A DNA stretch of 54,272 nucleotides, the filler included, from Sphacelaria rigidula (taxonomy: Eukaryota): the NCBI GenBank assembly GCA_964200075.2. It is 5 parts of 5 records of this genome, joined end to end, with 100 filler letters (N's around TTAATTAATTAA, not from the genome) between each part and the next. Parts side by side here need not be neighbours in the genome. Positions count along the whole stretch, not along the records: positions 1 to 10,775 come from CAXNAA020005935.1; 4 more parts are not named here. The stretch is one strand, 5' to 3'. Position numbers and translations under genes: made by a program. The notes beneath the pieces were generated by a model that had not been told where the DNA came from, searched no databases, and saw only the letters and a program-made list of their open reading frames with translations. Of the stretch, positions 1-51,669 are shown piece by piece (the first letter of the stretch is position 1; the number at the start of each line of letters is the position of its first letter).

Positions 1-102
1 AGCTCGACTCTGTACACGAGTCACCCTACCCATCCGGGCGTCGGTCCTCAGGCGTTGCCACTGTTGTGAAACGCAAACCGCTTCAGGCTTCTACCGCCAT
101 TA

Positions 103-2184
103 TTGACTCAACGCGCTCGCGGTGTTGATGGGCGGCATCCGCCCATGCCTTCCGACGTTTTCGGTACGTCGCACAAGGATTCCGATGCCTTACAACGCCC
201 GCGACGATACGACATGTATCGTGAGGACATTTCTGTTCACCAGCCCTCGCAGCGAACATCCTCCTCGTGTCTTGGCCGCTCCGAAGAGCCTTCCACAGGG
301 TACTTGCCTTTAGTAACGGCTCTTGAGCACTTGCTTCGTTCATCACCAGTTGTCATTTCTGACGGTCCGGCGACAACTGCCCTTTCACAAGCGCTTGCGG
401 CCGCGTTTCACACAGCCGTTCAATATTCAACGTCCTCAGATCATGTCCACTTTGACAGGAATGTGGATCATCAGGCCTCTGTACCAGCGGCTGCAGCCCA
501 TGATGACGAACGTTCAACCTCAGACGTTCCCTTTGATTTGGATATGGATGATGATACCATTGTCCACCATGGTGATCATACTACTCATGTTCATGATGTA
601 CATGCATTGTTATCGGGATTATCATCGACCATGGGATCCTCACGACCTAAATCTGTCGATCGGGCCCATGTGAGTTCACGAGTGCCCATAGATGCCTCGT
701 TGGTTGACATTCCCGCATCTTTGCGAAACGGGCGCAGCACTAACCGTGCCCTTCCGCCCTACCCTGATGCTGCAACTGTACGTGCGGTGGAACGACAAAT
801 TGCAGATCTTCGTCGATACCTGCGATCTGCTTCAACAATGGCTCACACCCAGTCATCTTTCACCACCGCCCCTATCGCGGCCACTCCAGCTCCTGCGGCT
901 GCAGACATCGACACAGATGCAGAAAGCACCCGTGTCACGCCCCCCGCCCCCAGCGCGGCGGCCACGGATGACATCCCCATCACGGCCACTGATGAGGAAT
1001 CGGCCACTTCGCCGCAGGCTTCTACTGCCACGGGCTCGGCTCCGACGCCTGCCCCCGGGTCTATCACGGACGACCGCTCCCTGTTGGGCGTCGAGCATTG
1101 CCCGGCGGGCCTCCTGCCCCGGCTCTGGTTACGAGGTCTCCGCTCCGATCACGAGCAAATCCTCGACGATTATCGTGTCATGCACCCGGCCACGCACCCT
1201 GCACCACCTTCGCCCCGCCAAACGGCGGACGGCGCTGCTCACCGTCTCCTTCATGACGACCTCACGGCACGTCTAACGCGCCAACGCCAGGCAGTCGACT
1301 CGGCGATCAGCCGCCAGCGGGCGGCTCAACAGACTTTGACTGCACGCCTCGCAGCGTTCGACAAGATACGCGAATCCATTCACCGAAATGAAGACCGCCT
1401 GCGCCAATACACCGCGGCCACGGCCAACACCACCTCGGCCCTCCGATCCTTGGAAAAGGAGCGACACCTTCCTCTTCTGAGGACAACGCCGACTGCGTCA
1501 GCGCCTGCGCCTACCCCTGCACATTCAGGCTCTGCGGAGAACCATCGGCCCTTGCGCCCATACGCTGTGGCTGCAGCTCCTACCGCCTCGCCTGCGCGCA
1601 CCCCGCCATCGCCAGCGCAGGACCTTCAGCCCTCGGCGACCCCTGTCCTCACACCTTGGCTCCGCCTTCAGGGCAGCGAACGGCCTTGGCTTTCTTGGAT
1701 GCTATGCCAACTTTCGGGAAAGTACAACCGCAAGAACCTTCTCCGCGCCTCCGAGGAGGCTTGGCGCTCGCTAACTCTGTCGATCAACAGCGTGATCGTA
1801 CCCTTCCTTCAGCAAGGGGGCCAACTGCCTAACAACGACCCGGGCACTCTCACTGTCAAACGCCTTGTACTGTACCTAACGATCGGTACCGGGGACAGTC
1901 GCCCCGCTTATGAGACCGCCGTCGCCGCCCTCTTCGCTGCTATGCGGGCAGCCCACAACACGCTGCCGCCCGAAGATGATGGGGCCTGGATCACACCCCA
2001 CCCCCTCGCCACCGTCGTGATGGCGACGACTTCGACGACGACCAACCCGGTGCCGCACAGCGCCGCGGTCAGGGCACCACCCGTCACCACAGCAATGATC
2101 GCCGCACAACCCGGGGCACCCATAAACGCTCCGGCAACCAATCTTCAAGCTCGTCTACGACCAGACACCGTCAGTACACCTTGA
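103..2184 (+). CDS. Gypsy ORF1 / N-terminal extension of Gag (693 open codons, first ATG at 145); Pro/Ala/Thr-rich with predicted coiled coils
   Basis: Long uninterrupted ORF directly upstream of and overlapping the gag fragments. It has a helical heptad-like segment (LTARLTRQRQAVDSAISRQRAAQQTLTARLAAFDKIRE) and a Trp-containing, globular-looking segment at about 1650-1990. No family recognised. Confidence 0.6.
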   Translation: MTQRARGVDGRHPPMPSDVFGTSHKDSDALQRPRRYDMYREDISVHQPSQRTSSSCLGRSEEPSTGYLPLVTALEHLLRSSPVVISDGPATTALSQALAAAFHTAVQYSTSSDHVHFDRNVDHQASVPAAAAHDDERSTSDVPFDLDMDDDTIVHHGDHTTHVHDVHALLSGLSSTMGSSRPKSVDRAHVSSRVPIDASLVDIPASLRNGRSTNRALPPYPDAATVRAVERQIADLRRYLRSASTMAHTQSSFTTAPIAATPAPAAADIDTDAESTRVTPPAPSAAATDDIPITATDEESATSPQASTATGSAPTPAPGSITDDRSLLGVEHCPAGLLPRLWLRGLRSDHEQILDDYRVMHPATHPAPPSPRQTADGAAHRLLHDDLTARLTRQRQAVDSAISRQRAAQQTLTARLAAFDKIRESIHRNEDRLRQYTAATANTTSALRSLEKERHLPLLRTTPTASAPAPTPAHSGSAENHRPLRPYAVAAAPTASPARTPPSPAQDLQPSATPVLTPWLRLQGSERPWLSWMLCQLSGKYNRKNLLRASEEAWRSLTLSINSVIVPFLQQGGQLPNNDPGTLTVKRLVLYLTIGTGDSRPAYETAVAALFAAMRAAHNTLPPEDDGAWITPHPLATVVMATTSTTTNPVPHSAAVRAPPVTTAMIAAQPGAPINAPATNLQARLRPDTVSTP

Positions 2185-3730
2185 CGCGATCCATGCGGCC
2201 CTCACCGGCCGTCAGGCAAGTAGCGGCTGCGTCTGCTCGCCTTTCAGGTCTCACGGATGGTGATAGTGACAATTCGGCTCGTCCATTGTCTTCAAACTCG
2301 GCTCGGTCACTCGCTGCCGCTCATAAAGTCGCTTCCGATACTCGTAGAGAAGCGTCTCGTGTCGCTGCAATCAAGCATGAGTACTTACAGATGGATGTAA
2401 AGAAACTCTGGCATATCAAAACCATGCCTGCTGCAGACAATGAGGACTCTGGTCAGTTTACTTCCGCTCTCATTTCCTCAATGCGTCGAACGATGCGCAA
2501 CATCCTTGAGGTTGGCCGATGCAACTGGTCAGAAACGTTTCGAAGACTCTGACTGGATTGATGGATAGCAAACACCGCTGCATAAGGCTTTGCACCCCTT
2601 AATCAGCCGTCGCTCCCCTGACGTTGTTGCTTCCTTAACGCAGATTCTCGACTCCTTCTTCGCCGCCATGGATCAAGATTGTGTCGGCGGGCAAACAGCG
2701 CCGCTATTATTCGGCAATTTGAAAAGGCGCATCATAAGTTATTTTGATAAATCTGAGCAAGCAGGCGCCATCGAGCGCCTCAGTTCCTTCGCCGTGGCGA
2801 CAGACGTGCCCTTTGCTGACTACCTACGCGAATTCAAGCTTTCGGTGTCGAGTGTAACTGGTACTGACCGACAGAATGGCCCTAGTGATGCTATGTGTCA
2901 GACGTATGTTCGCAATAGCATCGCTCAGCAATTTCCGATGCTGATGCAGCCTCTATTTCGGGGCGCTTTGGAGCACAAAGAGGTGCCTTACGCCTCCGGA
3001 GACGCGATGTGGAATGCGTTTGTAGATCAAGAACATAATTTAACGCCTGCCATTCGTGGCACACAGTGTTCTTCTGGGTCTTCGCAGACCTTGCGTGCCG
3101 CATTCATGAGTACCCCCGGGTCTCGTGCACACCCTCAGGCTTTGTCCAGTAATACTTGGACACCCAACTCTGTCGGTCATGTCTGTTCGTAGCAAAGAAG
3201 ACCCGTTCCGTGCAAGCTTCGACGCTTTTTTCGGCAGACACTTGTGATGACGTTTATGTCGTTTCCACAACTGCTTTCATCACTGATGACCCACATTTGT
3301 GGATCACCTTGCTTTCGCCTTCGGCTCGCAAGGATGCTTTTCGTCGCCGTGCTAACACATGCATCAACTGCAATGGTACTGGCCACAGTATGCGTGACTG
3401 CCCTGAACCTTGCATCAATATTTTTCGCTCATGAACCCTGAACTTCAGAGCAACAGGCAGGCGTGGCGCCGATGGCAAAAACGCATGCGCGAGTATACTC
3501 CACCTTCTCGCCACCATCGCCAGCCTTACCACAATCATAGCGACTCTCGCTCAAGTCGCGACCGCCGCCACACCACCAACACCGTCTCAGGTAGTCGTCA
3601 TAGAGATGGTTCTTTCCGCTCTTCTCAGTCTTTGCATGGTCATCACCAGCGAACGGGGCCGACTCACGACAACTCCAACCTCAATGCCAGAAACCCTGGT
3701 TCTTTCATGACGGATCGCATCGATCCATGA
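2181..3730 (+). pseudogene. gag: Gypsy gag (capsid-like region plus nucleocapsid zinc knuckle), frameshifted
   Basis: Fragments 2181-2552, 2590-3192, 3156-3434 and 3410-3730 lie in shifting frames. CX2CX4HX4C knuckle CINCNGTGHSMRDC at 3360-3401. MHR-like segment VPFADYLREFKL. Confidence 0.8.
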
Positions 3731-4447
3731 CATGCCGACGACGGTGTGAAGTCTTCGGCGCCGCCGATAGCAACATCATAGACTCATCCAACACACACTC
3801 GGGTGACAAAACGTTCTCACCCAACACTATGTAAGAGATCTGATGACGACCGTTCTTCTCGACCCTCGTCTTTATCTTCATACACACAGCGTAACCGTTG
3901 TGTTGACTCACAACCCAGCTCTATGCTTGGCTCCAGAATTGGTTCTCCGGAACAAAGTATAAATCTGAGGTGTGGGAAGACCGACCGCGGACCCTTTAGG
4001 CACAGGCTTCCTTCAACGACCGCACGCACCGGTTGCAACAGACTTCCTTCAACTGGTTCTGGTGTTGATTGTCCGAAACTGACCACTTCAAACCCTTCGA
4101 CTCCTACCCAGCCTGATCGTAGTCGTTTTTCGCGACACTCTTCTTCCGCGAAACTACCCCGACATACAGTGGACAACACTCGTCCCCTTTCACATTTAGC
4201 AGTGCCCTTTGTACCGAGCTTGCCAGCAGGCAGTTCACACGTTTCGGCCGAGCATGTCCCGATGCTGACAAGATCGCCTCAACTGGACGCAGTTGCAGTT
4301 TCCCGAGAAGTCTTGGAAGTTCCCAGCCATTTGTGACGGCACGAGAGGAAGCCTCGTCGTCATGCCCCCAAGGAAGCGCGAGCATTGACACGCCCCCCTC
4401 CCGTCAGCGGAAAATTGTGACCTCATTTTCCCCAAAAAGCGGCGACT

Positions 4448-7400
4448 TTGAGCTCGATGACATTGCCAGGCATCCCAGAGGAATCCAAATCGGATCCTTC
4501 AGACGGTACCGCATCCTCCACCGATGACCCCCGTCGCACTCCGCAGCATTTTATTTTTAATGATGACCCTTGTACTTCCAAGCCAGTCATCTACGAGATT
4601 GATCAAAATCCTGATTCACGCTGCCCTTCACAATCGAATCAGACCCTCGCGCTGTCTACCGATACCTTCGAACCCCCCGCGGATCACCCGCCATCCGTTT
4701 TCACAGTCAGTCCGACTAATCCTGACCAATTCACGTTATCTGAACATGGGCCTGACCTTGTTGATAGTAAGGTGTCCGTTGATCCTGCCACCTTCACTAC
4801 CCGCGTAGCATGACACTGCGGCCCTTACGCCACCGCGCGCGCCAAGTGCGTCTCATTGTTAGACAGCGGTAGTTCACAAACATTCATCAAAGAATCCATG
4901 TGGAATCGCATGAAGCAGACTAGCGCTGCTTCCGATGTCTGCGAAATCACCACCCCATCTCGCGTTTGGGGCGGTTTCGGCGACTCAAATTCACCCTTGA
5001 CAACACGAAAATCTGTTCGTGTTAGTGTGCATCTTTTCCACCACGATACACGCTCGGCTAGTCTCGCAGTTTAGGCTTACATCGTCCCGGGTAGCACCAT
5101 GCACCATACTCTCCTTCTTGGCAGAGATAGCTACATGCGGTTCGACCAACGCTCATACCGCACCCTCCCACCATTATTGCCTGAGCCGGCGCCTCGTGGA
5201 GGACTCCAATTAGAACACTTTCGTACCCTCAATGGTGCCTTAGCCTACAAAAAGAATGAGCAGGCTACCGGAGCTGCTTACCATCTTCGGTACAATGGCA
5301 GTTTTGGCGTCACCCTTTCCGACGAGCCTCAACTCTTGGAAGTTTTGCTTGTTCGCCGCAACGGTATGCTTGCCCTCACCGGCCACTACCTTGCGGAATT
5401 GCTGCCTAAAGTTGGCGCGCCCACTGGCACTGAGCATTTTGTCTCGGACGGCGAACAACTCCTGCCTCTCACAGGCCGTGCTAATTTGGAACCTGGCGAT
5501 GTCTTGGGCATCGCCGCGGCTCCTCTTATGCACATTCCTCTGGAAACCTGAGTAGCCGACCCTCCGGTGCCTGATCTCACGCCGCCGACTGATGGTTTTG
5601 TTCACTGCGTCGATGAGCCATACTTCAATCTACCCTCCTCACCCCCGACTCGGATTTCTGCGGTGGAATCCACCCAACCCCCTGCCGAACCTCGTGATGA
5701 AGTGCTTCAACGCTTATCGGTCGATTCTCGGGAACATTTCCTGCAAATGTGGCACCAACTTCCACCTCATTTGCGTGATGTCCACTTTGACCTACATGGT
5801 CCGGGCTAGGAGCTCGCCGTCATCCAAGAGCTACAGAATGTTCTCCTGGAATCTCAGGACAGATTTTCCCGATCCAAGACGGATCTCGGGCATTCTAAAA
5901 CATTGCCATTCGAGATAACACTGCAACTTGGCGTTTCGCCAATCTCATCTCGACCATATCGAACGAATCCCGTCCTCACCAAAAACGGCAATGCTATTTT
6001 GGATGCATACTTAGGAGCTGGTCTGATTCAACACTCGATTTTGCCATGGGCCTCACCCCTCGTGGTTGTCCCCCGAACAGATGGCAACATACGCATCACC
6101 GTGAATTACAAACGGCTGAATCGCGTCACTGTCGTGGGAAAACTCCCCGTACCTCGCATCGACGAAGTCTTCGACTCTCTCGGCGAAGGAAAAATATTCA
6201 GCACTTTCGATCTGGCCTCTGGATTTTTCCAAAATGCAATTCACCCCGGTACAGTTCCCTTGACAGCGTCCTGTACATCTTCAGGGCTTTATGAATAGCT
6301 TCGTATGCCACAAGGCGCTGCCACCGCACCTGGCTACTTTCAACGCCTCATGTAACTCGTTACTAAAGGTCTCCAGCACGTCATCATTTATCTAGACGAT
6401 GCTATCGCTCTTGATGCCTCCCTCAAGGCGCATGTTCGCACTCTACGAGAATTCCTCTCCCGCTTGCGTACACACGACTTAATACTGTCTCCATACAAAG
6501 CTCGACTCGGAGCCACTGAATGAATTAATGGGTTTTTTGGGACACTCTATTTCTCCTGCTGGATTGCACCCAGACACGAACAAAGTCAAGGCTATGCCTG
6601 ATATGCCCGTGCCCACCACTATTTCGCAGCTTCGCTCGCTGTTTGGCGGACTTTCATATTATCGCAAATTTTTGCCCATTTTGTCCAAGCGGATCCGGCC
6701 CATCACAGATTTACTAAAGAAAAACGTCCCGTTTGTCTTCACTGCAGAAACGGAAGCCACCGTCCGCAAACTGCTCAAAATACTTACCGAAAAACCGATT
6801 CTTTGTTTTCCGGATTGGGACGCGGTACTAGACGGCTCACGTCTTTTCCGACTACACACTGATGCTAGCACAGATGGGTTCGGCGCCGTTTTGAATCAGT
6901 CTCAACTGGATGTCTCTGTCCGACCTATTTTGTACATCAGCCGCGCAACCCTCCCAAATGAGGCAAACTGGAGTCCACTCGAACTCGAAGGCGGAGTCAT
7001 AACTTGGGCAATTAAAAGGCTTCGACAGTACTTGTTCCACGTGCCTTTCCACATCTATACAGATCACGGAGCTCATGAACAACTCGCTAAGGTTGGAGAA
7101 CATAACCCCCGCGTACAACGGTGGCTGGAGTTTTTGACTGCTTACCAGTACACTGTTAGACACCGTCCGGGCAAATCCAACGGCAATGCTCACCTTCTTT
7201 CGCGATTGCCTCTGCCCCCTACAGCGGTAGATTTCAGTCCCGCTTGCCGCTCGACTGAACCTGACGAACCAGGCGTCTACCCCATCCGGCGTTTTTATAT
7301 GCCCATCTACGCGCTTGACCTGCAATGCCCTGAAACAGGTCTGCACATGGGGGGGGGGCGCCCTCTGCCCCCTGATACAGTATTGGATGGCTTGGCGCCC

Positions 7401-10049
7401 ATAGCTACTGATTTTGCCGACTTCCGCACTTTCGGCCCTCGCGCGAACATCTCGGCGCTGCCACCACAAACTGTTCACCTCATCTCCGACAACACGCGCT
7501 CTCGGTCGGCAGCTCGTGCCAATTCTTCGCGTGCTGTGATGCCACCACCGCCGCCGGCCGCGCGTAGCAATGCGTCGCCGCCGCCGCCTCGTGCTCCCAC
7601 GGGCCGTACCACGCCTACAAAAACCGGCCGCGTGCCCAGTGTTGTACCAACACCGCCCGCGCCCCTTGTGTGCCCAACGCGCCGATCGTGTTCACCAGTT
7701 CGCGCTACCCCCATGCCGCCTTCTGGCACTCTCCCAGCACCTGCGCAACTGACTCGCGATACACATGCGTCAGATCCGCTCCCAGATCAAGATGTTGACG
7801 TCGGCACCCCTGGTTCTTCACCTGTGCCACCCCCTCCTGAGCCATCATGTGTGGTTGCCTCTCCGGCTGAAGGACAACTTCGAGAATTTCTCGCTACCTA
7901 TTCTCACCGCGATTGGGCTCGCAACCAACAACAGGAACCGCTCTGTCGTGCGACAATGCGGCACTTACGGCTTAACTGCCCCACCCCTTTCCCGGCCGAG
8001 ATCCTGACTCCCGTGGGCACTCTACCCGCGCCCACCGCCTTTGACGTGCTCGAGCTGGCACGCAAAGGTATTATCTTCACGGCTGACGACGACGTTCATT
8101 TGCTTGTTCGCCGATTCCACTGACATTTGAGCACGGCTGCCGCAGTAACAACTGCCACTTCGGCACATATGCGTCATGATGCGTCCGTGGGTCATTCTGA
8201 TTTGTCCTGCCATATAAGCGTCACGCGCACGTTAGCGCTCCTTGAACGCTTTTATTGGTGGATCGGCATGGAAGCATTCACGCGTTTTTGGATCCGACGA
8301 TGTTTCAAATGTCAGGCTCGCAAAACCTCTCGACAGACTGTGCGATGGCTGGTGATTTTCATGGAGCTTCCAAACGCTTCTGGTCACTTCGTATCGTTTG
8401 ACAACTTCGGCCCTTTACCCCCAACTGACCGTGGTAATACCTATATTCTACTTTTCACAGACCGCTTCAGCCGTCACGCGGCTATGTATGCTGTTACTGC
8501 TAGCGATTTCACTGCTGCCGGCACAGCAGACATTCTCGTCCATGACTACATTAAGCACTATGGCTGCCCGAAACAGCTCCTCTTCGACAATGGTCAACAA
8601 TTTTGCTCCGACCTCTCGGATGCTTTGTAAAAGCTCCTCGGCATTCGCAAAATTGCCACGAGCGCTTACCACCCTAGCGGTAACGGTGGAACTGAACGTG
8701 TGAACCACACCATGGCTCAAATGCTTTCCATGGTCGTAAACGACCGCCAGAATGACTGGGACCTTCATCTTTCGCATGTCATGCTGTCTTACAACAGTTC
8801 GGTTAACGCGTCTACGGGCCTCTCGCCCAACGAGCTACATCTTGAACGCTACCCTCGTCTGCCCATCACCGTTTTCGAAGGACATACCTTCGATGGTCAC
8901 CAAGGTCTGGACCAGGATCAGCTGTCCTACCACGACCTCGCCCGGGCTCGTCAGCGCAAGGCTTTCACTTTTGTGCGCGAACAACACGCTATCAACGCCT
9001 CAAGATCCAATGCCGCCCTTTACAATTTGATGCACAAACGTCCTACTTGGAAGATCGGCGATTGGGTCTGGATCTACAATAGTTTGTCCACCATCCGTCA
9101 AGGCGCTGACCGTGCTGCCCAGGCAGCAGCCTTGAAGACGAAACTGTCCCTCGATTGGACGGATCCGTTCAAGATTCTCATAGTCGGACCCTCGCCGACA
9201 TCTCCTGACGGCAAGCCCGTTGGCGACAAACTCCTCTACCTCTATTTACCTCGTGACCTCCAGGGGCACGACGCTAAACCTCGCGTCTCTGTGCATCGTT
9301 GCAAGCCTTGCACGAACCCGCATGACACTACGGACATGCCTCAATACCTACCTACAGGTCTCACTCAATACGTGCTCAACAGCCACTCAACAAAATCTCC
9401 ACCGTACCACGTTACCATCGATGACGTGACTGAACAACCTCTCCGCTTGGCCGTGTCCCACATTTCCGGCCACCAAATCACTCGAGGCCCTGGCGGCAAA
9501 ATTGCAGTTATGTACAAGACACACTGACAAGGTCTTCAGCGTGCGTCTTGGGAACGCGAGTCCGACCTTCAACTGCACCGTCGTGCTATCCTTCTCTCTT
9601 GGACACAATCCCCACAGCAAGAGCTCGCTGACAACAAGGGATATCGCAACATGAGACGCGGCGCCGCAGCCCGCGAACTCCATCGCGACAAAGGACTACG
9701 TTTTGTAGCCGATGATTACGAACTCGTACCCACCAAACAATGGGACGAAAAGATTCGCGCAAAACAACAACCGCTCCCTAAAGGTGCCTACTTGTGGTAT
9801 AAGGGCAGCGATTACCTCTGGTGGCTAGGTCAGATCCACTGCGTCGATGCCCCCGCGGCCGACACGTACATCGTGCGTTTCCTCGACGATCCTGGGCCCG
9901 TTCAGCTCAAGCTTCGCCCCGATTTTTACACGACCAGCCCTTCCGCACCCCGCGGCTCCTGGTGCCTACAGCGCTTCAAGTCACACGACCTACGCCGAGG
10001 TCTTCAGCGCAACATCGATCGTAGACATGACATCAATGCACCATCTTGA
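4448..10049 (+). pseudogene. pol: Gypsy pol (protease-RT-RNase H-integrase-chromodomain-PWWP/Tudor-like), disrupted
   Basis: Protease DSG at about 4862, RT about 5900-6520 (YLDD about 6389), RNase H about 6850-7210, integrase about 8170-8900 (SFDNFGP, FDNGQQF, GTERVN). In-frame stops at 4811, 5072, 5549, 5807, 6296, 6353, 8121, 8628 and 9525, plus one frameshift near 6520. Confidence 0.95.
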
Positions 10050-10639
10050 GTCCTATCTCTCCGCACTCTCTTTATCGCGATTTTTATCTCCCCTCCCAGT
10101 TTGGTTCTGGTACTTCCCCTGTTCCCACTCAGGTACGCTCTCCTCTTCACTGCTTCACCTACGATGGCTCTCCGATCGCGGCTCGTCTCTACCCTCATCA
10201 GCCCCTTCGACGACTTCCTCTGGATCCCCTTCGCCCCCTTCCATTGGCCCCTGCGCTGCCGCCACTTTGTCTGGCTGGTACTCGACCCTATCCGGGTTCT
10301 TGAGTTTTTGTTTTCCTGCTTGAGATTGCCGCTGTGTACCTTGCGATATTTTCTTTTGCTTTGATCTAGATAGCGCGTCAAAGCATTGTGTGCTTTTTCC
10401 GTCTGTTCGCTAGCTCGCAGCAGCATTGTGTGCTACTGCGCAGTCAACCGCAATTGCGTAATTGCGCTTTTTGAGCCACCTTTGGTTTTTCTTGTTTGAG
10501 TTGTGGGAGGATCGGGCACCGGGTTGATCATTACCCTCTTGTTTGTTTTCGCGTTGTCTCCTCATGACTTGACGGGTGAGACAAGCCTCAATTTTACTTG
10601 CTCTTGAGATTTCATCGCAACTCAAATAGAGGTTCGTCT

Positions 10640-10775
10640 GGGTGGGTGAGTGTCATGAGGAAGCAAGATAGACAGGCGTTATTTGAGCCCACAGACAACT
10701 TTGGGGCAGGTTGGCTCACAGATCACTCGATCCATCCATAGGAATGCTCCCATAGTTCTGGGGAAGGTTGATGTA
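10640..10775 (+). repeat. Polypurine tract (10640-10650) and start of the Gypsy 3' LTR (TGTCATGAGG from 10651)
   Basis: GGGTGGGTGAG is immediately followed by TG, about 600 bp after the pol stop. No second LTR copy is available in the window to confirm. Confidence 0.65.
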
Positions 10776-10875
10776 NNNNNNNNNNNNNNNNNNNNNNNNN
10801 NNNNNNNNNNNNNNNNNNNTTAATTAATTAANNNNNNNNNNNNNNNNNNNNNNNNNNNNNNNNNNNNNNNNNNNN
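10776..10875. other. Artificial linker (N44-TTAATTAATTAA-N44)
   Basis: 100 nt with a core giving stops in all six frames; identical to the three other linkers. Confidence 0.98.
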
Positions 10876-12528
10876 GGATGCTCCCACTAAAACCCCCTAT
10901 CAACTTGGCGCAGTACACGCGCCGCCCTGCTCCTGAGAGCTTCGGCCCTAGGGAAAGAGCACTATTAATAGGACCGCAAACAAGTTTTTGCATGCGGCTC
11001 TGTACTGCCAACAAACTACGATCTTGTTCAGCAAGCACACACGCTTGTTTGGTTTGGTTCGCTGCGAGAATTTCCGAATTCTTCCACGCCTAACGGCGAG
11101 TTTAGAGTGCATTATTGTTCCGGATTGAGTTTCGGAAGCTGCCCGTATTTGCGTGATCTGCTAACCCTGGACGAAAAAAATCACTGTAAAAAAATATGCC
11201 GCGTACGGCATGGAATCGGTCGTCTATTGCAATAGATCCAATAGTCGGTACTGTAGGCAATACAATTTTTGACAATGTCATCTATGGTTATTATCCAGGG
11301 TGTGGTGATGAACAGGTTTGTCGATGTACCTCCCTGCTGGTGTCCAGGATGTATCGGATCGACAAGAGAATTAATTAACCGCTCAATCCGACCGTGCTTC
11401 AGGGAAAACATGATCATCTGGGCACCCTCCATATACCGTATTGCCATCGATGACACAAGAATAACGCGTATGTTTTCCTCGACACTTCACTACGCGTCTC
11501 TTCCCTCCGATTATTTAGGTGCATGGATTCAATATTCAGACCCGCGGTAAGCCTGAAAAACAAGCGTTTTTCACTGCTCCCAACTAAAGTTTCATTTCAC
11601 ACTAGAACTCCGGGGCGAGGAGAAAAGATATACCTTCCTTGATTCCTGTATTTCCTCTCAAATGATGAAAGTTACTGAGGTGGGTTTTTCCTTAGAGAAA
11701 TGACTTCCGCCGCTTGATTGTTTTGTCCCACGCCAGCACGTTCAGTATACGCGGTGATCAGGAGCTCGAGGCGGTCAGTCACTTTTCGTTTTTCGCTGTG
11801 TTGCGTGCTGAGGATAGTTGCCACCTTGACACACTGAAATCGGGACGAAAGCAGTCTTGTGATTTGCTGGCAGCATTTCTGTACAGGGCAGTGTCGGTCG
11901 GTACGACAATAGAAATGGCTGTTGTCTCAACTGCTGTAGAATCTCATCTCGTGTTGTTATTGCTTGCTTGTCCAAGCACCCCCCGGTCATGGACACGGCC
12001 ATAGAACTACCATTCCAAGACGTACTTTTGTGCTGACTGTGCTATATCGTACGGCACTACTCACTAGCTCACACCACACAACCCACTCTTATTCACGCAG
12101 TTTCTCGGCAGCGCTCCCCTCTGATGCACGCACGAGGCTGTACCCTTCCACTCAAGCCCGCATCTGCGGTCGTGACCAGCATCATGACTGGGTAACCGAC
12201 ACGGTGGACGTACGTTAAATCATTTTGCGCGCTTACCGTCCAAGCGTCACAGCTCCGTGCATCCCCTACTTCAGTATCAAGCAAGAACTTCATGTGATAC
12301 AGTATATATGTATATATACCATCAGTGATTCAGTACAATTACCATCCTAATCACACACTCCCAGTGATTCATGATTCCCCTCCCCACTTCGTACGTGGGA
12401 CTGTCAGTCGGGAATGTTGATCCGAAAGGAGCCTTGGCGCCTAAGGAGTTGATGACATAAATAAAAAATATGAAAAGCTGACGCTACCGCGGCCACCGCT
12501 ACCTCGTGCTGGTTTTCTTACCCCTCAG

Positions 12529-13838
12529 GCCCGATGGAACCGTGTCCATACTTACAAAGGGGGACAGCAACAAGGTGCGTGCCGTTAGAGTGGTACGTGC
12601 GTTCGGTCACAGTGCATGAACGATGGGTCTTACAATCGCCGGTGGCGATGCGCAGCAGTTGTTCTGCGCGCCCCCCTTCTCCATGTACAGGCAGTTATTC
12701 GGGTACAAGGGGCGTATTTGGTGCTGGTATACTAAAAGCTCGCGTCGTTCGCAGACCATTATCGTCATGATTGTTATTTTCTTCATTCGAGTGCTCCGCG
12801 GCATCCTTTGCCTGACATTGTGTCCGTCCGAGTGGTAGCACTGGTGCTTGATGAGTTCGTCTCTGCGCCATCGGCGAAAGTAGTGACTGGTGTAGTTGAA
12901 ATCTCGATCGATTGATATGGTTGTCGTACATTCACCGATCTACTATTGTAGGAATCCGGCTGTGGTCACCAGGTGGATGTGTACTCAGGGTGAAAAGAAA
13001 CAGAAGCGCTCGCTGAAAGAAGCTCGACAAACCGAAGAGAGCAAAAATAAATATCGGTGATGAAACACGACCTCACCGTCCTCTACTGTCTTGGTGCCCA
13101 GTCATCCTCCTGTTCCGCTCTAATTTCCCCCCCCCCCGCCCGCGCGATGCCATTTTTGATTTGTTGCACCGGGTTACGTGCATACTGTGCACCTCAACAC
13201 CACCTTGATCAGGTGAACGACAGGGGGTTGTATGTGCCGGGGCAAATGTGGCTGGGGCGAGACGCAGTTCTCGGGAGGGCGCGGGGTACACTTCGTTACG
13301 TGGGCATGGTGACCATCATCCTCAACGACTATCCACCGCTCAAGTGAGTTGCTTCGTGAAGTGGAATGCTTGTACTCGAACCAAAACACGCTTTTGTAAC
13401 CTCGGATATCACGAACTTGGACGACAACGCTCTTCACACTGCCCTATTTGTTTTTTAGGGTGTACGTCGCACGGCCTTTTTGTGACACGGCACCTATCGC
13501 CGCCACCACTTTTCGTCAGATGACGGAGCTTGTTCGGAACTGCAAGGCCCGTTTAGTTTGCTTTGCCGCTGTGCGTAAATGTGTCGGTGAGCTGGTTGCA
13601 TGTGCTCCTTGCCGCAGGTACGTACGTCGTGTTGCTGTTCCTTTCTTCCCCTTCCTGCCCCATTTTGAGGAATGGATTTCATGTCGGATATGTATGTATC
13701 GAAGATCACCCGACTCCTGAGTATCTAGTGCAATGATACCCCGATCCGTCCCATTCCCATCTCTGTTGCCCACCAATCTGTAGGTATGTGCTGGTGGGAT
13801 TGATGGGGCTGTTTGTTCTCACGAATCGAGAAGCATGA
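12529..13838 (+). CDS. SEC11: Signal peptidase complex catalytic subunit SEC11 (peptidase S26B), last three exons; 5' exons not found in this block
   Basis: Exons 12529-12574 (PDGTVSILTKGDSNK), 13213-13343 (VNDRGLYVPGQMWLGRDAVLGRARGTLRYVGMVTIILNDYPPLK) and 13784-13838 (YVLVGLMGLFVLTNREA*). All introns are GT-AG with compatible phases. Matches the SEC11 C-terminal consensus LTKGDNN..DDRGLY..GQ.WL....V.GRARG..PY.G.VTI..NDYP..KY. Confidence 0.93.
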
Positions 13839-14794
13839 CGCGACGCAACACAACACAAGCTCACAGCAGCAGCAGCGGCGGCCGATACACTTGACCATCA
13901 CCAGCGACGCTTCGGGGTGTGCACTCTGGCCACGGATTATTGGTGAACTGCGGCTAGGAGCTTCCAGAGATATCCCTGTCAACGCATGAAAGAGTGAAAC
14001 TGCGCGTGGGCAATTTGGAGAGGATATTCTTGTCAAATATTGTGCAATGATTGTCTCTCGCGTGGTGGCTCATGTACTTGATGAGATGGAAAAGCACGAG
14101 TGTGTTGATGACGCAGTACCCCTTCTAGCTGAGGGTAGCACCACTCGTGCCCCCTCCGGCCCGTTATGCGGGGAACAGGTTTGACTGGAGGGTGCTGGCT
14201 CAACGTCTCTGCGCTTCGTGTAGAATCATATGCCGTGATTGGGAGCTGGGATCGGCATGCCAAAGTGTAGCTGGTGGCAAACACGTGATGTGTGACAAAA
14301 AAGAAGAAAATAGTAAACGCCGATTGGTACATGTTTGGTAGCTTGTTTACCGTACTTGTTGGCAGTGTCTTGACGCGTTGGTTCTATCGCGCAGCATCTG
14401 TAGGGCGGGTCGAGTGTGCAGCAAGCTCTGGTTGTCACAAAAAAATACGCATACAAACCAGAAAATGTTCGTTGCGTGCGAGATATTTCATGTATCCGCT
14501 GTGTGCGCTTGGTACATCCTCCCATCCTTAGTGCGCTCGCCACATGCATGGGACGAGATACTTCGATCTTTTCGATATTCTGAAGATTTTTATATACTTC
14601 ACTCTCAGTAGACACAGCAAACACACCCCCTGATTCCGACCACAAAATCTGTGAACGATCACGGCGAACTTTTATTTGTCCCGTGCTACGCCGCATTTGT
14701 GCCGTCATCGAAACGGTTTCCTGGAGGGATTTCTACAGTTGTTGCAGCAGAAAAGCATCTCGTCGTGATTCATTTTCTGTACAGCTACGAGTAA

Positions 14795-15090
14795 CAACGT
14801 TTTCGTGAGATTGAAAGTAGAGCGCTGATTGAGAGGGGCTTCGATCATTCGCTTGAAGTCAGCCAATTTTTCATTCCGTATGTGCCTTTCTTTCCCTCCG
14901 TCACTGGCGTGTGCCTACAGCTACACATCGAGATCCTACTCAGGGATATCAAGGGCATCAGTGGCAAGCCATTACAGAAAGCATATTGGGCCTCTTGGAG
15001 GAGCATTTCAGAACTGAAACGATTCATTCACTCATTGACCGCTCTGCACTCTCAATCGCACCCTTTACTCTACATCTCACGAAAACACTG
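14795..15090. mobile_element. MITE family A, copy 1 (about 296 bp, possibly hAT-like)
   Basis: Imperfect TIRs CAACGTTTTCGTGAGA / TCTCACGAAAACACTG. Homologous copies at 31648-31921 and 51185-51488. Flanks ACGAGTAA / GTGAGTAT look like a decayed 8-bp TSD. Confidence 0.8.
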
Positions 15091-15686
15091 GTGAGTATGG
15101 TATAGCTCAAAGCAAGGCATAAGAAAAGACATTTTCAATGTGTGAAGCGTTTACAACACGCTAAACACTACAAACCTAAAATTACGGTACCGCTTTCTGG
15201 CGAACCCATACTGCAAGATCGAAAACCGTATCTATCGAGCTGGTAGAAGCACCACATCGCCCCCGCGCATGGGTGGCTATGATTCGCCCAACCAGACACT
15301 CGTCAAACTACAAGACTAAACAGTCTATTAACAACCAGGGTACTGAACCCGAAGCACCGGGCCTATCGAAAATAAAAGGTGCCTGCATCTCCCACCAGAC
15401 AGCATATACACCACCGTGGCACTCGAACCTCCGAGATGAGCGCTCCGTCTCGCACCTTCATTAGGATCGCGATCTTTCAAAATATTGGACTTCCGATTTT
15501 CTATTCCAACATGACACGGTCACTTGCCATCTATCGCGTATCATCCTGGTACTCCACCAAATAGTAAAACCCCGGAGGGTAAGCGCATCAAAATGCAATC
15601 TCTAGACTCTGACGGTTACAACGCAGGTTCACCGACCAACCCAAATCTTCCCTCCCCTCCATCGTTTTACCAGCCATCACTTGTCA

Positions 15687-18600
15687 TCACGGGAATAGCT
15701 TGTCCGACGGCCCCACCACGAGCGATTCCGGATGCAGATCCAAGTCATCACCCACGTGATGATGGTGGTGGTGCTCTTCCCCAACATCCAAGTCAGTTGT
15801 CTCCAACCCTCGCGGTGCCAAGTCCACATGATGATGGTGGTGGTTTTGTTGTGGCTGATGATGGTGATGGTGAGGATGGTGCCCAAGGTGATGATGGTGA
15901 TGATCGATAGACATACCCGTCGGATCCAATCCTCCCAGGTCTCCATCTTCCCCCAAACCCGGTACTCCAACATCTACCCCCACGTCCTCCATCCGCGAAG
16001 GCTCCAAAACGTCTCCACCCATACCATCGAACCCCAAGGCCCTCGCCTCTTCGAGTCCTGCCTCGACCGCGCCCATGCTCATCGCGTCCAGGCCCACGGA
16101 GTCCAGACCCTCGGAAACCACCAAGTCCGTAGCACCGCCCCTGTCAACTGTAACGCCATCTTCTGTGCCTACGCCACCGCCGACGCCGTCGCCGCAGTGT
16201 GCGTGTCCGCCGCCACCACGACCGATGACATCGGGGTGCCCGTGATGTTGATGATGATGCGGGTGTTCTTGATGATGGTGCTGTTCTTCGTGATGATGCT
16301 GCGGGTGCTGCTGGTCGTGAACGTTGCTGTGGTGATCACCGCCAAGCATGCCCATCTCGTCATATGTTCGCTTGCGGCTCGCGCCTATTCCTCCCACCTC
16401 ACCGGTGTCGACACTGACATCACTGCCGCCACCGCCGTTGCCCACCGCCCCGCTGACTCCTACATCGACACCCGTGCCGATGTCGATGCTACCCATTCCA
16501 ATTCCCTCCGCTCCCACGACCGTTCCGTTAGTCACGTCCTTTTGGCCCGGCCGGTACCCGATCATTCCGGGGGTCTTGTGCTCCGCGCAGAGGACGGATC
16601 GCATGCCGTCGTAGCTGTACCAAGGGCGCTTCAAACACCCCGTCACCTGGCACTTGCGGGACACCACATCCATCATTCCGTCTGCCTTGTGTTTCTACCA
16701 TGGGCAGCGGCACAGGGGAAGCACGGGAGTGTATTCGCGAGAGGAGTACATGTAATAAATCATGCGCCGATACACATGCCATGCAAATCGCGATGGTAAT
16801 ATGAAAGAGGGAGGGACTGCGTTTTCGGGGGGATGCTGCTGCGTACGGTACAAAGACAGGGACTTTCCGCCCTTGTCGAACAAACGTTGAATGTCGGTTG
16901 CGCACGGACACTCGTACATCCCAACGGAGTCATCGATACAATATTTCGGAGCATGTGAGGATTGTATCGTCAAGTCAGCTCCCCACCAGATGTGACGACG
17001 CATGCGCTGAACGCCAGATGGGGCAGGGTAACAGCTACGCCATCAAAATGAACGACTTGTAGTTAACAAACGAGTGGGCGGCGGCAGGCCCGGCACACAC
17101 TAGTTTCGAGGAGGATTAGTAACAGAGTAACAACATCAGCGGCTTTTGAATTTTCAATTTCTGTAAGCCTCCACACCTGGCAAAACTTTGGCGGCCGCAT
17201 CCCAGGATAGTTAAATTGAGGCTCAGTCTGGCAGCCGTCGGCCTGACATTTGCGCTGCAGGCTGGTCATCCCAGGGAGGCGGTGCTGCGCGCAGTAGAGT
17301 CGCTTACGGTCCGCCTCGAACCCGTACCTGGGCAGCTTGTCGCACCCGGATTCCAGGCACAACCGCCGCTGTACTACACGCATACCCTCAGTTCGGTGGG
17401 CCCTGCAAAACACGGGCCCCTGATCATCGTAGCCGCAGCGTGCTCCAGCGCCGCAGCCAGGGTACTCACACGTTTTCGTGGAAACGTTGACGCACGCCTC
17501 TGTCTTGTGGTCTTTACAGAAACGCCGCACCCGGTCGGCGGGGTTCCCGAAGTTGGGCTGCTTGCGACACCCGTCGGCTTCGCATCGCTTGACATGAATG
17601 TTTTCCATTCCAGGGACCTTGTGAGTCCCGCACACACGCGCTCGCTGCTCCGTGGGCCAGCCCCATAACGGTTGGCGGCGGCAGTTCTCGTGCTCGCAGC
17701 GGCGCTGGGAGACGTTGACCATCATGTCCTGTTTGTGGGCTTGGCAGAAGCGCGCCTTTTCCCCCTCGAAGCCAAAGCTAGGCGTCACCTGTTTTTCAGT
17801 AGGGTCAGGATGGAAAAAATGGTCTACAAGTGCGCATCACCACATGGTGGGATTTACAAATGAATGGCGGAACGACAAAAGCAGGAGATATCGCTTTTGT
17901 GTCACCTGGTCGAATTGCTACCCAGCGAGTCGCGGTAGTTGCCCACGCGGACACAACTGGCGTGCCGGCTTGGGGTATAATATATGATGCAGTGCACGAA
18001 GGCAGCGTCGCCTGTCAAAATATGGGAGATGGCCACAGTGTTGACTGGAGTGTATGCCGCGTATATTTTTCTCTTCTCCGACTCAACAGGACGCGACCTA
18101 GAGTTTCGATCGTATATCTATGGTTGATGTCTCCGAACAAACTGACAATAACGCGAACCCTGACCCCAACCCCGACCCAAGGCGTAGCAAGGGGGGTGTA
18201 TAGGTTCCCCTTGGCAAAGTGTGCGTTGGCAGACCTCGAATCGCAGACCTGAAATCGACGCCGCAGGCGCCGATTTCGACAAAAACGCGTTCTGGACGAG
18301 CTGGGTCCACTGCTCACCTGCCCCAAACCATAAATTTTTCCAGAACTTTCTCGAGTCTGAAATCGGGTAGTTATATAGTCAAACATAGATATACGACCAA
18401 AACTCTAGGTCTACCGCTCAACAGTCCCTCTCACTTCCACAAGAAATCCCGCCAAGGTGCAATAGCAAACCTTTTCCCAGAAGATAGAGAAAAAACTCGT
18501 GATCGTGCTTTACAGCAGTTCATCAAGTCCGAAGCCCCACACAATGCCAAAGGCCCCGTGTGTATGCACAGCACGGAGGCACCCACCTCTGAACCTCTGC

Positions 18601-19762
18601 TCTTGATAGAGCAACCCCCCACTCCCATAACATTGTGCTGCTTCTACAAATTACATTTCCATCAGGGGAAGGGTACCTTGCAATGAGGTTCCTCGCACAA
18701 CCGATGGTGCACGTCCATCATGCCAGCCTTCTTGTGCTCCATGCAAAACCTCGCCTCCTCGCCCACATCGCCAAACCGCGCCTGTCGCGAACACTCAGGT
18801 ACCTGACAGTTATTTCCCACTTTGTATACCATTCCTTCCTCCCGATGGCTCTTACAGAACTGCCGCCGCTCGCCCTCATACCCGTACAGCGGGTGCCTCC
18901 GGCATCCGGGCGCCTCGCACCGCTTCCCTCTAAGGTTTACCATGCCAGGCTCCTTATGCACCGAACAGAACCGCATCGTATCCCCTCCCTCGAACCCGAA
19001 CCCCGCACTTTTGCTGCAACCTGGGTTCTCACAATTCCGCCGCCGCAAGTCGACCATTCCCGGCAGCTTGTGCTCGTCGCATCCGAATGCATCCCGCGAG
19101 CAGTTGCCCCACCGCGGAAATGCTGTGCACGTTGACTCTACGCACCTCCTCCGTTGTCGCGGCGGCGCTCCACCACCGCCGCCCGCACCGCCGCCCACGC
19201 CATTGGCGAGGTCTGTCGTAGTGTTGGGCCCAACAGCAACACGTACAGAACTAGACGATGGTCGCATGCCGCCGCCTCTGCCGCCGTCAGCGGAGCATGT
19301 ACCTGCGACTGAATCTGGCCCACCCGCCTCACCACCACTCCGGCCATCTCCTTCTGCTGCCCCGTGGTGGTGGTGGTGGTGTTCATGAGGATGAGGATGA
19401 GGATGAGAATAATGGTGGTGATGATCAGCGTTTGGGTCATCGCCGGCAGTGCTAGGGTGACTGCCGTCATCGATTTCAGTGTCGCCCAACAGCGGCGGCA
19501 AGCTATGAAGAGTGCAGGGTGGCAGCTGCCCTTTAACCCACTCCTTGACCTTGAGAAGATCGATCTCTAGTTGTCTCTTGGTTTTCCACTTGGTCTCGAG
19601 GGCGCCCTTGGAGACGAGCTTCGTGCAGTCATCTTCGGAGAGGCCGGACTCGCGGCGAAAGGCTTCGGCTGCTTCGACGAACAGTGCTCCGCCTTCAGCG
19701 GAGGAGAGGTAGCCGAAGATGGACGCATGCAGCTTTTTTCGCTGCAGCAGAGTCAAAGACAT
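15687..19762 (-). CDS. LIS1-type LisH/coiled-coil N-terminus fused to 11 EsV-1-7 cysteine-rich repeats, with His/Gly/acidic low-complexity regions (about 901 aa, 3 exons)
   Basis: Exons 19762-18677, 17788-17177 and 16694-15687 with GT-AG phase-0 introns. Splicing restores two split repeats (CEEPHCK|VTPSFGFEGEKARFCQAHK and PPKFCQ|KHKADGMMDV). Repeats follow C-x4-C-x15/16-C-x2-H[KR]-x2-(G)M. The N-terminus MSLTLLQRKKLHASIFGYL...AFRRE...GALETKW is in register with LIS1. Confidence 0.9.
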
Positions 19763-20038
19763 TTTCAATTATGGAATTGGCGGTTTCATTTGCTTGGGCG
19801 ATTGTTGAAGCACCGTGTTGAGGTTGCGCTGCGTTACGGCGTTTGGTGCAGCCTCGATCAGGCTCCGTGATGCGGAAAGGAGGATGTACAAGTTTCTGTT
19901 ATTTTTCTTTCCCACATTTGCCTCTGAAATTAAGTTCAAACTCGTAGTGATGAATTTTTGAATTTCAAAATCACACCTCACAAGCGCAGGCAGTCCGTGC
20001 ATGAACAACACCACTCACGGCACAGTACAGCGTGCACC
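19763..20038. promoter_or_regulatory. Putative bidirectional promoter / 5' UTR region
   Basis: 276 bp between the ATG of the minus-strand LisH/EsV-1-7 gene and a plus-strand ATG (CACCATGG) at 20039, with an AT-rich core at about 19890-19970. Confidence 0.45.
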
Positions 20039-21650: not shown

Positions 21651-21750
21651 NNNNNNNNNNNNNNNNNNNNNNNNNNNNNNNNNNNNNNNNNNNNTTAATT
21701 AATTAANNNNNNNNNNNNNNNNNNNNNNNNNNNNNNNNNNNNNNNNNNNN
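21651..21750. other. Artificial linker (N44-TTAATTAATTAA-N44)
   Basis: Identical 100-nt linker. Confidence 0.98.
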
Positions 21751-32524: not shown

Positions 32525-32624
32525 NNNNNNNNNNNNNNNNNNNNNNNNNNNNNNNNNNNNNNNNNNNNTTAATTAATTAANNNNNNNNNNNNNNNNNNNN
32601 NNNNNNNNNNNNNNNNNNNNNNNN
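32525..32624. other. Artificial linker (N44-TTAATTAATTAA-N44)
   Basis: Identical 100-nt linker. Confidence 0.98.
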
Positions 32625-43398: not shown

Positions 43399-43498
43399 NN
43401 NNNNNNNNNNNNNNNNNNNNNNNNNNNNNNNNNNNNNNNNNNTTAATTAATTAANNNNNNNNNNNNNNNNNNNNNNNNNNNNNNNNNNNNNNNNNNNN
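43399..43498. other. Artificial linker (N44-TTAATTAATTAA-N44)
   Basis: Identical 100-nt linker. Confidence 0.98.
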
Positions 43499-51161: not shown

Positions 51162-51184
51162 AATGTTACACCTGCTGCAGTAAA

Positions 51185-51488
51185 CAACGTTTTCGTAAGA
51201 TTAAGAGTAGAGCGCTGATTGAGAGTGGTTTTGATAATTCGCTGTAACTTGGCCAATTTTTCATTCCGTGCGTGCTTTTCTTCGCCTCCATCACTGGCGT
51301 GTGCTTACAGCTAGACGTCGACATCCTACTCAGGGATACCAAGGCCCTCAGTGGCAAGCTACTACGGAAAGCACATTGGACCTCGGGGAGGGGCATTTCG
51401 GAACTGAAACGATTCATTCACTAATTGATCGCTTTGCACTCTCAATCGTATCCTCTATAATAATACTCTCAATCTCACGAAAACACGG
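51185..51488. mobile_element. MITE family A, copy 3
   Basis: Collinear with 14795-15090 along its length; TIRs CAACGTTTTCGTAAGATT / AATCTCACGAAAACACGG. Confidence 0.8.
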
Positions 51489-51669
51489 TTAGTAGTATAC
51501 TTATTTATTATTTTGCAGACCTACCTCGAGGTTTCGCACGCCACATATACCGAGGGGCAGACGTGTCACGTGATCACGTGTGTCCACTTACACAAGTGAC
51601 TAGTCTTAACCCCTGTCTTCCACAACATGTTGCCGGTCGGGGGAGTGGTACTACTGCATAACTCATTTC

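Follow-up and report, generated by a model that had tools for sequence, protein, structure and literature searches.

In the window we analyzed, a 54,272-nt stretch of DNA from Sphacelaria rigidula, positions 4733-10049 of the plus strand hold a Ty3/gypsy (Metaviridae) retrotransposon of brown-alga type as a dead copy, and the integrase of this element carries an unusual C-terminal tail. The pol frame goes on past the integrase GPY/F domain to a natural stop, the TGA at 10047; the tail (9441-10046, plus strand) is, we can say with high confidence, made of three parts: a chromodomain, a structured Arg-rich helical linker and a five-stranded Tudor-like barrel. The explanation we favor for the whole, with a probability of about 0.6, is that the chromodomain-linker-barrel tail of the family represented by this dead Gypsy copy tethers or targets integration. 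An initial annotation, made from the same DNA, had described the tail as a chromodomain followed by a PWWP/Tudor-like domain acting in chromatin targeting; its structural part was in essence correct, although 'Tudor-like' is a better label than 'PWWP', and its functional part is only partly supported.

The frame 8631-10049 is open save for one TGA at 9525-9527, and translation of 8124-10049 (plus strand) gave exactly the amino acid strings quoted earlier for the region after GPY/F. The 172-aa tail downstream of TGA 9525 matched 28 proteins at E-values from 2e-46 to 6e-18 and 41-54% identity, with 26 of the 28 covering at least 92% of the query; the observation is therefore far beyond chance. 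An rve domain was precomputed in 14 of these 28 proteins, a Chromo, Tudor or PWWP domain in none. Intact relatives, including the full Pol P0021 (1848 aa), have integrase and tail in a single frame. The expectations that the tail would be kept in relatives and that it would not be out of frame with integrase were both borne out.

A phmmer search against 1.84 billion cluster representatives gave 583 matches at E ≤ 1e-3, 240 at E ≤ 1e-10 and 16 at E ≤ 1e-30, mostly short fragments; the 150 matches listed were all fragments of this family. Named sources of relatives were Ectocarpus sp. CCAP 1310/34, Undaria pinnatifida and S. rigidula, and the family looks brown-algal. A closer copy, P0046, is 80% identical to the window tail. 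The profile search for longer relatives and the region search with P0021 found members of the same family only, and among them neither distant relatives nor single-domain forms, nor any donor among host proteins.

Among 12 long relatives the mean pairwise identity was 0.72 for the integrase core, 0.70 for GPY/F, 0.69 for the chromodomain, 0.61 for the barrel, 0.57 for the linker and 0.42 for the last ∼24 residues. The chromodomain and barrel are conserved nearly as well as the integrase core and well above the extreme C-terminus, which, at the level of sequence, argues for selection on the tail during transposition. The poorly conserved end, a short C-terminal stretch with the natural pol stop (9978-10049, plus strand), is also where the predicted local distance difference test score (pLDDT) of the structural model drops to 47-54.

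We also saw that some tail-bearing Pol relatives (P0017, P0031, P0032, P0033, P0039 and P0196) have a NADAR domain (PF08719) near the N-terminus. It was present in 5 of 18 tail relatives from the region search with P0021 and in 5 of 22 from the profile search (E 9e-46 in P0031); Pfam did not find it in the window copy or in P0021. NADAR is variable within the family as defined by the tail. Two gene models join part of the tail to unrelated domains, P0026 to TIMP and WSC, and P0044 from Undaria to a protein kinase and a cNMP-binding domain; such models may be chimeras produced by annotation across decayed insertions, or fragments that were exapted.

Two AlphaFold2 models were used in the analysis of the fold. 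The model of the relative P0016 (26 aligned rows) was confident only for residues 131-320; the model of the window's own 172-aa tail (29 aligned rows) had a mean pLDDT of 86.0 and a predicted template-modelling score (pTM) of 0.77, with linker and barrel modelled as one confident unit. Foldseek local matches of these models to MPP8, Chp1 and PHF1/PHF19 had probabilities of 0.99-1.00 at 24-33% identity, with a root mean square deviation (rmsd) of 1.5-2.8 Å for MPP8 and PHF1/PHF19. With the alignment profile as query, all PDB sequences together gave seven matches at E ≤ 10, four to chromodomains (three MPP8, one Swi6) and three to the PHF19 Tudor domain, each on the expected segment.

The chromodomain occupies 9441-9602 (plus strand) and includes the TGA stop at 9525-9527. 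In the P0016 model, strands at 137-147, 153-161 and 168-171 are followed by a helix at 172-187 (block mean pLDDT 77-89 over residues 141-190); this is the three-stranded sheet with a C-terminal helix of a chromodomain (Pfam PF00385). Foldseek probabilities for the MPP8, Chp1 and Swi6 chromodomains ranged from 0.92 to 1.00. The MPP8 chromodomain was matched at probability 1.00 (TMt 0.63-0.68; 31-33% identity) and that of Chp1 at 0.99, in the latter case to a nuclear magnetic resonance model with rmsd of 6.2 Å over 74 columns. In the PDB profile search the three MPP8 chromodomain constructs had E-values of 0.083-0.092 and Swi6 had 0.76, all aligned to profile positions 141-197. Pfam Chromo was touched by 7 of 14 relatives at E ≤ 10, with the best E-value, 0.0021, below the curated cut-off; there was no chromodomain match at the Pfam curated threshold, and the window read-through P0001 had none at all.

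Position 1 of the chromodomain's aromatic cage, which we take to be where the HP1/MPP8 structure would place it, is L, V or I in 23 of 24 relatives (L18 V4 I1 F1) and Leu in the window. Position 3 is likewise Leu in the window, and L, V or I in 25 of 26 relatives (L23 I2 F1). Position 2 is W in all 25 covering relatives, Trp in P0046, and TGA 9525-9527 in the window. Both the placement of the stop at the conserved Trp and the loss of the first and third cage aromatics had been noted in the initial annotation, and both hold across the family. The chromodomain cage consists of Y24, W45 and Y48 in the account of PMC3350952, where group II retrotransposon chromodomains (CHD_II) are those without Y24 and usually without Y48. 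The family matches the CHD_II residue pattern, and 'group II-like' was a fitting description; given the lineages described in PMC12477816, membership in a plant chromovirus clade is unlikely. Shadow chromodomains, according to PMC3350952, keep W45 and are also without Y24 and Y48.

Between the chromodomain and the barrel there is a linker of ∼57 aa (9603-9773, plus strand), a conserved, structured and Arg-rich inter-domain module as judged from the model of the window tail and the alignment. It is made of a helix (36-53), a short strand (63-65) and a second helix (68-76) at block mean pLDDT of 75-96, and the P0016 model has the same order of helix, short strand and helix at 198-237. Invariant or near-invariant columns of the linker include N, A, R and G-Y.

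The barrel, five-stranded and Tudor-like (Royal family), follows at 9774-9977 (plus strand). The second domain had been placed earlier at 9774-9915; the start stands, and the end has to be moved, as the barrel reaches ∼9977 through the G-S-W-C-L-Q strand. In the model of the window tail its strands lie at 87-91, 97-107, 112-117, 123-127 and 144-149 with pLDDT of about 88-97; the P0016 model has five strands at 247-308. This is the five-stranded antiparallel β-barrel of Tudor domains, a fold that generic small barrels match too. Invariant in the family are W, WW-L-G, R-F and S-x-C-L, and near-invariant are L-D-D-P-G-P and the W of S-W-C-L-Q; the motif spacing noted earlier, G-x-x-V-W-x-K … LWWL … Y-x-V-x-F, is real and conserved in relatives.

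The top Foldseek match of the window tail was PHF1 (8h43_B; E 0.019, probability 1.00, rmsd 1.5 Å over 44 columns, 32% identity), with PHF19 (6wau) also among the top matches. The PHF1/PHF19 Tudor domains as a set were matched at probabilities of 0.99-1.00 and 26-33% identity, with rmsd of 1.5-2.5 Å over 44-46 columns; MTF2, PHF20, Spindlin, SND1 and Spt5-KOW barrels came at lower ranks. The profile search independently returned three PHF19 Tudor constructs (E 0.092-0.13; profile positions 250-289). When 14 relatives were scanned singly against Pfam at E ≤ 10, SH3_VIII-1_N was touched in five (best E 0.04), Tudor_2 in one and Agenet in one. Three concordant lines support the Tudor label: the Foldseek rank, the 26-33% identity and the independent profile match.

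The peptide-binding side of PHF1 is described in PMC7492083: the cage is formed by W41, Y47, F65 and F71, with D67 and S69 as polar residues, next to a leucyl patch that binds the peptide, made of L38, L45, L46 and L48 (PHF19 numbering is that of PHF1 plus 9). We carried the PHF1 numbers via the PHF19 profile alignment onto the column counts of the family (n = 26). Of the cage residues, W41 corresponds to A16, G5, S3 and E1 (G in the window), Y47 to W in 26 of 26, F65 to F in 26 of 26, and F71, by ungapped extrapolation past the aligned stretch, to P in 25 of 26; the polar contact D67 is D in 25 of 26. Two leucyl patch positions, L38 and L46, are W in all 26 sequences. By this alignment the canonical cage would be half present, and the adjacent peptide-contact face appears to be Trp-rich and invariant.

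Several results weigh against the explanation we favor. Neither of the two Foldseek runs against PDB had a match at E ≤ 0.001; the reader-domain matches were weak (E ∼0.01-0.1) and none was significant alone. In Pfam, no reader family was found in the window's pieces or in the read-through P0001, and the intact P0021, P0031, P0002 and P0045 had no Chromo or Tudor at E ≤ 1. The window barrel searched by phmmer against PDB matched the mitoribosomal mL43 only, at chance level (E ≥ 0.66). A de novo designed SH3 barrel (Foldseek probability 0.99) and phage small barrels (1.00) were matched as generic folds. The three-aromatic cage of group I (Y24, W45, Y48) is reduced to one aromatic of three in the chromodomain, and the PHF1-type cage to two of four in the barrel. 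MTF2, with three of the four cage aromatics, binds weakly according to PMC7492083; since the family barrel keeps only two, a textbook methyl-lysine pocket is doubtful, and the linker helices could instead be what the invariant Trp residues pack against.

Against viral structures, Foldseek matched nothing but generic small barrels of phages and giant viruses (E ≥ 0.013). Leads from ESM Atlas stayed below threshold (scores 0.76-0.82; Spin/Ssty, the DIR17 Tudor family and SAWADEE) and were not used as evidence. A complex prediction for two copies of the P0016 tail, run for self-association, scored 0.00 with the alignment not used, and it counts neither way.

One could argue that the barrel, and perhaps also the cage-poor chromodomain, is an SH3/KOW-like nucleic-acid-binding or protein-docking domain rather than a mark reader, with a role in intasome assembly, in non-specific binding of target DNA or the nucleosome surface, or in recruitment of a host protein, and with the chromodomain acting in a chromo-shadow-like manner. 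The incomplete cages speak for it, as do the Spt5 KOW, SND1, designed SH3 and phage barrels found at similar Foldseek scores, the SH3_VIII-1_N hits in 5 of the 14 relatives, and the conserved, Arg-rich linker helix; W45 without Y24 and Y48 is the shadow chromodomain pattern too, as defined in PMC3350952. However, the top-ranked matches, and the sole ones at sequence level, were the methyl-lysine readers MPP8 and PHF1/PHF19, with no chromo-shadow structure among the Foldseek matches listed; the GPY/F domain of the element already fills the usual SH3-like role; and the invariant residues of the barrel fall on the peptide-binding face of PHF1 as mapped in PMC7492083. We consider the SH3/KOW-like alternative the less probable one, at odds of perhaps one to three.

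Similarly unlikely, in our estimate, is that the family with its tail has already been fully described as one of Ectocarpus's four Gypsy lineages (PMC12477816), with both domains given in the figures or supplements of that paper. All four lineages carry reader domains there, the tail relatives include NADAR-bearing Pol proteins as in the Gypsy-12_Ec32 lineage, and the authors used HHpred, which would detect both domains. On the other hand, the passages of PMC12477816 on these lineages assign chromodomain and Tudor to different ones with the tandem unmentioned, and a full-text literature search, which brought up just that paper and an unrelated one, gave no report of a tandem chromodomain-Tudor integrase.

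A third possibility, that the second domain is a true PWWP (with LWWL for PWWP) and hence a LEDGF-type reader in cis, is very improbable. PWWP is, like Tudor, a Royal-family domain, and the motif spacing G-A-x-x-W-Y-K … L-W-W-L-G-K-I … Y-I-V-R-F is conserved. However, no PWWP was present among the matches listed from either PDB Foldseek run, among the seven PDB profile matches or among the five Pfam families touched by the 14 relatives at E ≤ 10. A helical bundle after the barrel is the defining feature of PWWP; the model has only two short helices there, with falling confidence. With an L-W-W-L motif, no bundle and no PWWP among the matches listed, the PWWP label was set aside; the other half of the earlier assignment stood, and 'Tudor-like' is the better label because the best Foldseek matches were the PHF1/PHF19 Tudor domains.

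Finally, that the frame of the tail is open by chance or the tail is functionless 3′ junk of a dead element, as the nine in-frame stops and the frameshift of the window copy might suggest, has next to no probability and is refuted for the family by its segment identities, by ∼41-55% identity in at least 28 relatives, among which columns of W, G, F and C are invariant, by the confident AlphaFold2 folds and by hundreds of family representatives.

Returning to the tethering explanation, chromatin tethering or targeting by the tail is somewhat probable by analogy to chromovirus chromodomains and to retroviral integrases that are tethered through readers. The most likely role of the tail in active members would be to anchor the complex of integrase and cDNA on nucleosomes, or on a host factor bound to chromatin, with a resulting bias in the insertion sites of new copies. 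The tail would then be a cis-encoded counterpart of the chromovirus chromodomains and of the LEDGF PWWP. Specific methyl-lysine reading by the tail is a more doubtful matter, with a chance we would put well under one half; any histone mark would probably be read via the barrel's Trp-rich face (W249, W257, W258 and F276 in P0016 numbering), not via a textbook cage. Of the proposal that the tail is a chromatin reader, the conserved chromodomain and Tudor folds stood, as AlphaFold2 and Foldseek both gave them, and the complete aromatic cage did not; with only two of the four PHF1 cage aromatics by alignment, reader function of the barrel is plausible at most.

Ectocarpus, as characterized in PMC12477816, is without H3K27me3 and H3K9me1/2/3 and has negligible 5-methylcytosine, and H3K79me2 and H4K20me3 are associated there with repeats; the earlier remarks on Ectocarpus chromatin agree with this account. 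The usual chromodomain ligands are absent from at least one brown alga, which fits a degenerate cage. One could speculate that chromodomain, linker and barrel work together as one bivalent nucleosome reader whose pocket is non-canonical and lined with Trp, and that it evolved in brown algae, where H3K9 and H3K27 methylation is lacking, for a lineage-specific chromatin state such as H3K79me2, H4K20me3 or H3K36me3; we hold this to be improbable as it stands. If true, this integrase would be the first of any retrotransposon to encode a dual reader in cis, and it could serve as a natural probe of what makes insertion sites 'safe' in the chromatin of brown algae.

No cases of transposons picking landing sites via chromatin are clearer than integrase-reader fusions. 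A conserved and abundant tail with two different Royal-family folds offers a concrete protein for nucleosome tests and for comparison of insertion sites with chromatin immunoprecipitation data. If marks are indeed read, the element would encode combinatorial two-domain targeting; if not, reader folds would have been recycled for another integrase function.

The rest of the pol copy is decayed as well. The full Gypsy Pol P0021 is colinear with 4733-10046 (tblastn, 46-47% identity), with 4733-6517 in frame 2 and 6534-10046 in frame 3; P0002, an integrase-plus-tail protein, aligned to 7767-10040 at 59% identity by the same method. The protease and reverse-transcriptase part (4733-6517, plus strand, frame 2) is decayed and was located by tblastn with P0021 residues 24-618 (47% identity). 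The Pfam match to RVT_1 at 5810-6295 was weak (E 0.0047); protease and reverse transcriptase are clear to Pfam in P0021. Then follow, on the plus strand, the reverse transcriptase-associated RNase H and a Pro-rich spacer in frame 3 (6483-8120; Pfam RT_RNaseH, E 3.9e-26, and RT_RNaseH_2, E 1.6e-18) and the integrase zinc finger (H2C2) with the DDE core (8127-9047; Integrase_H2C2, E 3.6e-10, and rve, E 8.4e-06), with stops at 8121 and 8628. By colinearity with P0021 and by the order of Pfam matches, this is the protease, reverse transcriptase, RNase H and integrase order of Ty3/gypsy pol.

The segment 9048-9311 (plus strand), from WKIGDWVWIYN to RCKPC, was delimited by sequence reading and is conserved in the family alignment; we take it to be the integrase C-terminal GPY/F domain. 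It is the ordinary SH3-like C-terminal domain of the element, to which the chromodomain and the Royal-family barrel are additional, as had been claimed at the outset and as AlphaFold2, Foldseek and the profile now support. AlphaFold2 confidence for GPY/F was low in the P0016 model.

The pol copy has nine in-frame stops (4811, 5072, 5549, 5807, 6296, 6353, 8121, 8628 and 9525) and a change of frame between 6296 and 6483; because of these stops and the frameshift the copy is dead. Four of the nine stops (5072, 5807, 6296 and 9525) are at columns where relatives have Trp. A search for flanking long terminal repeats found no direct repeat of at least 80 nt in 1-20000, and blastn of 10050-10775 against 1-9000 gave matches at chance level only; the repeats may have decayed or may lie beyond the end of the piece at 10775. 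In the open reading frame 6483-8123 a Pro/Ala/Ser-rich low-complexity spacer at ∼7300-7900 (plus strand) separates RNase H from the integrase zinc finger; P0021 and P0027 have such a spacer too, with varying length.

The window itself is a composite of five pieces of ∼10,775 nt with N44-TTAATTAATTAA-N44 spacers between them (10776-10875, 21651-21750, 32525-32624 and 43399-43498). It is not one contiguous locus, and features across joints cannot be assumed to be neighbours; Gypsy pol and tail sit in piece 1 (1-10775). Dispersed repeats connect pieces 2 and 5 (83% over 320 nt; 14793-15104 and 51183-51499), pieces 3 and 4 (82% over 126 nt, inverted; 22617-22745 and 36283-36404) and pieces 3 and 5 (72% over 272 nt); none of these repeats resembles Gypsy pol by tblastn comparison.

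Among known systems, chromoviruses (MAGGY with CHD_I; the plant Tekay, Galadriel and Reina with CHD_II) share with this family a chromodomain after the integrase GPY/F domain and a presumed role in integration targeting. The MAGGY chromodomain binds H3K9me2/3, as cited in PMC3350952, and the plant CHD_II are like the family in having a cage without the first and third aromatics. In contrast to chromoviruses, a Tudor-like barrel follows the chromodomain here and the hosts are brown algae; CHD_II is described as plant-only in PMC3350952, and the Ectocarpus chromodomain Gypsy lineages are placed outside chromoviruses and Chronos in PMC12477816. ECR-1, the centromeric Gypsy of Ectocarpus (PMC11541908), is likewise a brown-algal element whose integrase is fused to a C-terminal chromodomain; however, according to that source it keeps all three cage aromatics, compared with one in this family, and the word 'Tudor' has 0 occurrences in PMC11541908.

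The barrel by itself is most like the Tudor domains of PHF1/PHF19 (Polycomb-like), readers of H3K36me3, which are its best structural and profile match and whose Y47, F65 and D67 have conserved equivalents. It differs from them in a small residue at W41, probably Pro at F71 and invariant Trp at L38 and L46, and also in context, since it is located in an integrase after a helical module, whereas PHF1/PHF19 are PRC2 accessory proteins. HIV-1 integrase is tethered in trans via the PWWP domain of LEDGF/p75. There, as would be the case here, an integrase is coupled to a Royal-family chromatin reader for the choice of site; in contrast, the reader-like domains of the tail are in cis, there are two of them, and the second is Tudor-like rather than PWWP.

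A further comparison is with the four Gypsy lineages of Ectocarpus in PMC12477816 (Genome Biol 2025), three of them with a putative C-terminal chromodomain, including ECR-1 and Gypsy-12_Ec32, and the fourth, Gypsy-10_Ec32, with a C-terminal Tudor. That paper reports Gypsy-10_Ec32, with a homologue in Tribonema, as the first transposable element with a Tudor domain, and describes an N-terminal NADAR in the Gypsy-12_Ec32 lineage. These are, like our family, brown-algal Gypsy integrases fused to Royal-family readers, and NADAR is shared with some of the tail relatives, although neither the window copy nor P0021 has it. In the passages of PMC12477816 on these lineages, chromodomain and Tudor belong to different lineages, whereas both are in one protein here. 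Several tail relatives carry NADAR, which suggests that a Tudor-like barrel may sit unnoticed after the chromodomain of the NADAR/chromodomain lineage. In full-text literature, with the figures and supplements of PMC12477816 outside the search, there was no tandem chromodomain-Tudor integrase and no retrotransposon-encoded PWWP. Of the lineage-specific dual module proposed earlier, the two domains in cis stand and the novelty is reduced: single-reader integrase fusions, Tudor included, were already published for Ectocarpus in 2025 (PMC12477816), and what would be new is the two-domain tail in one protein.

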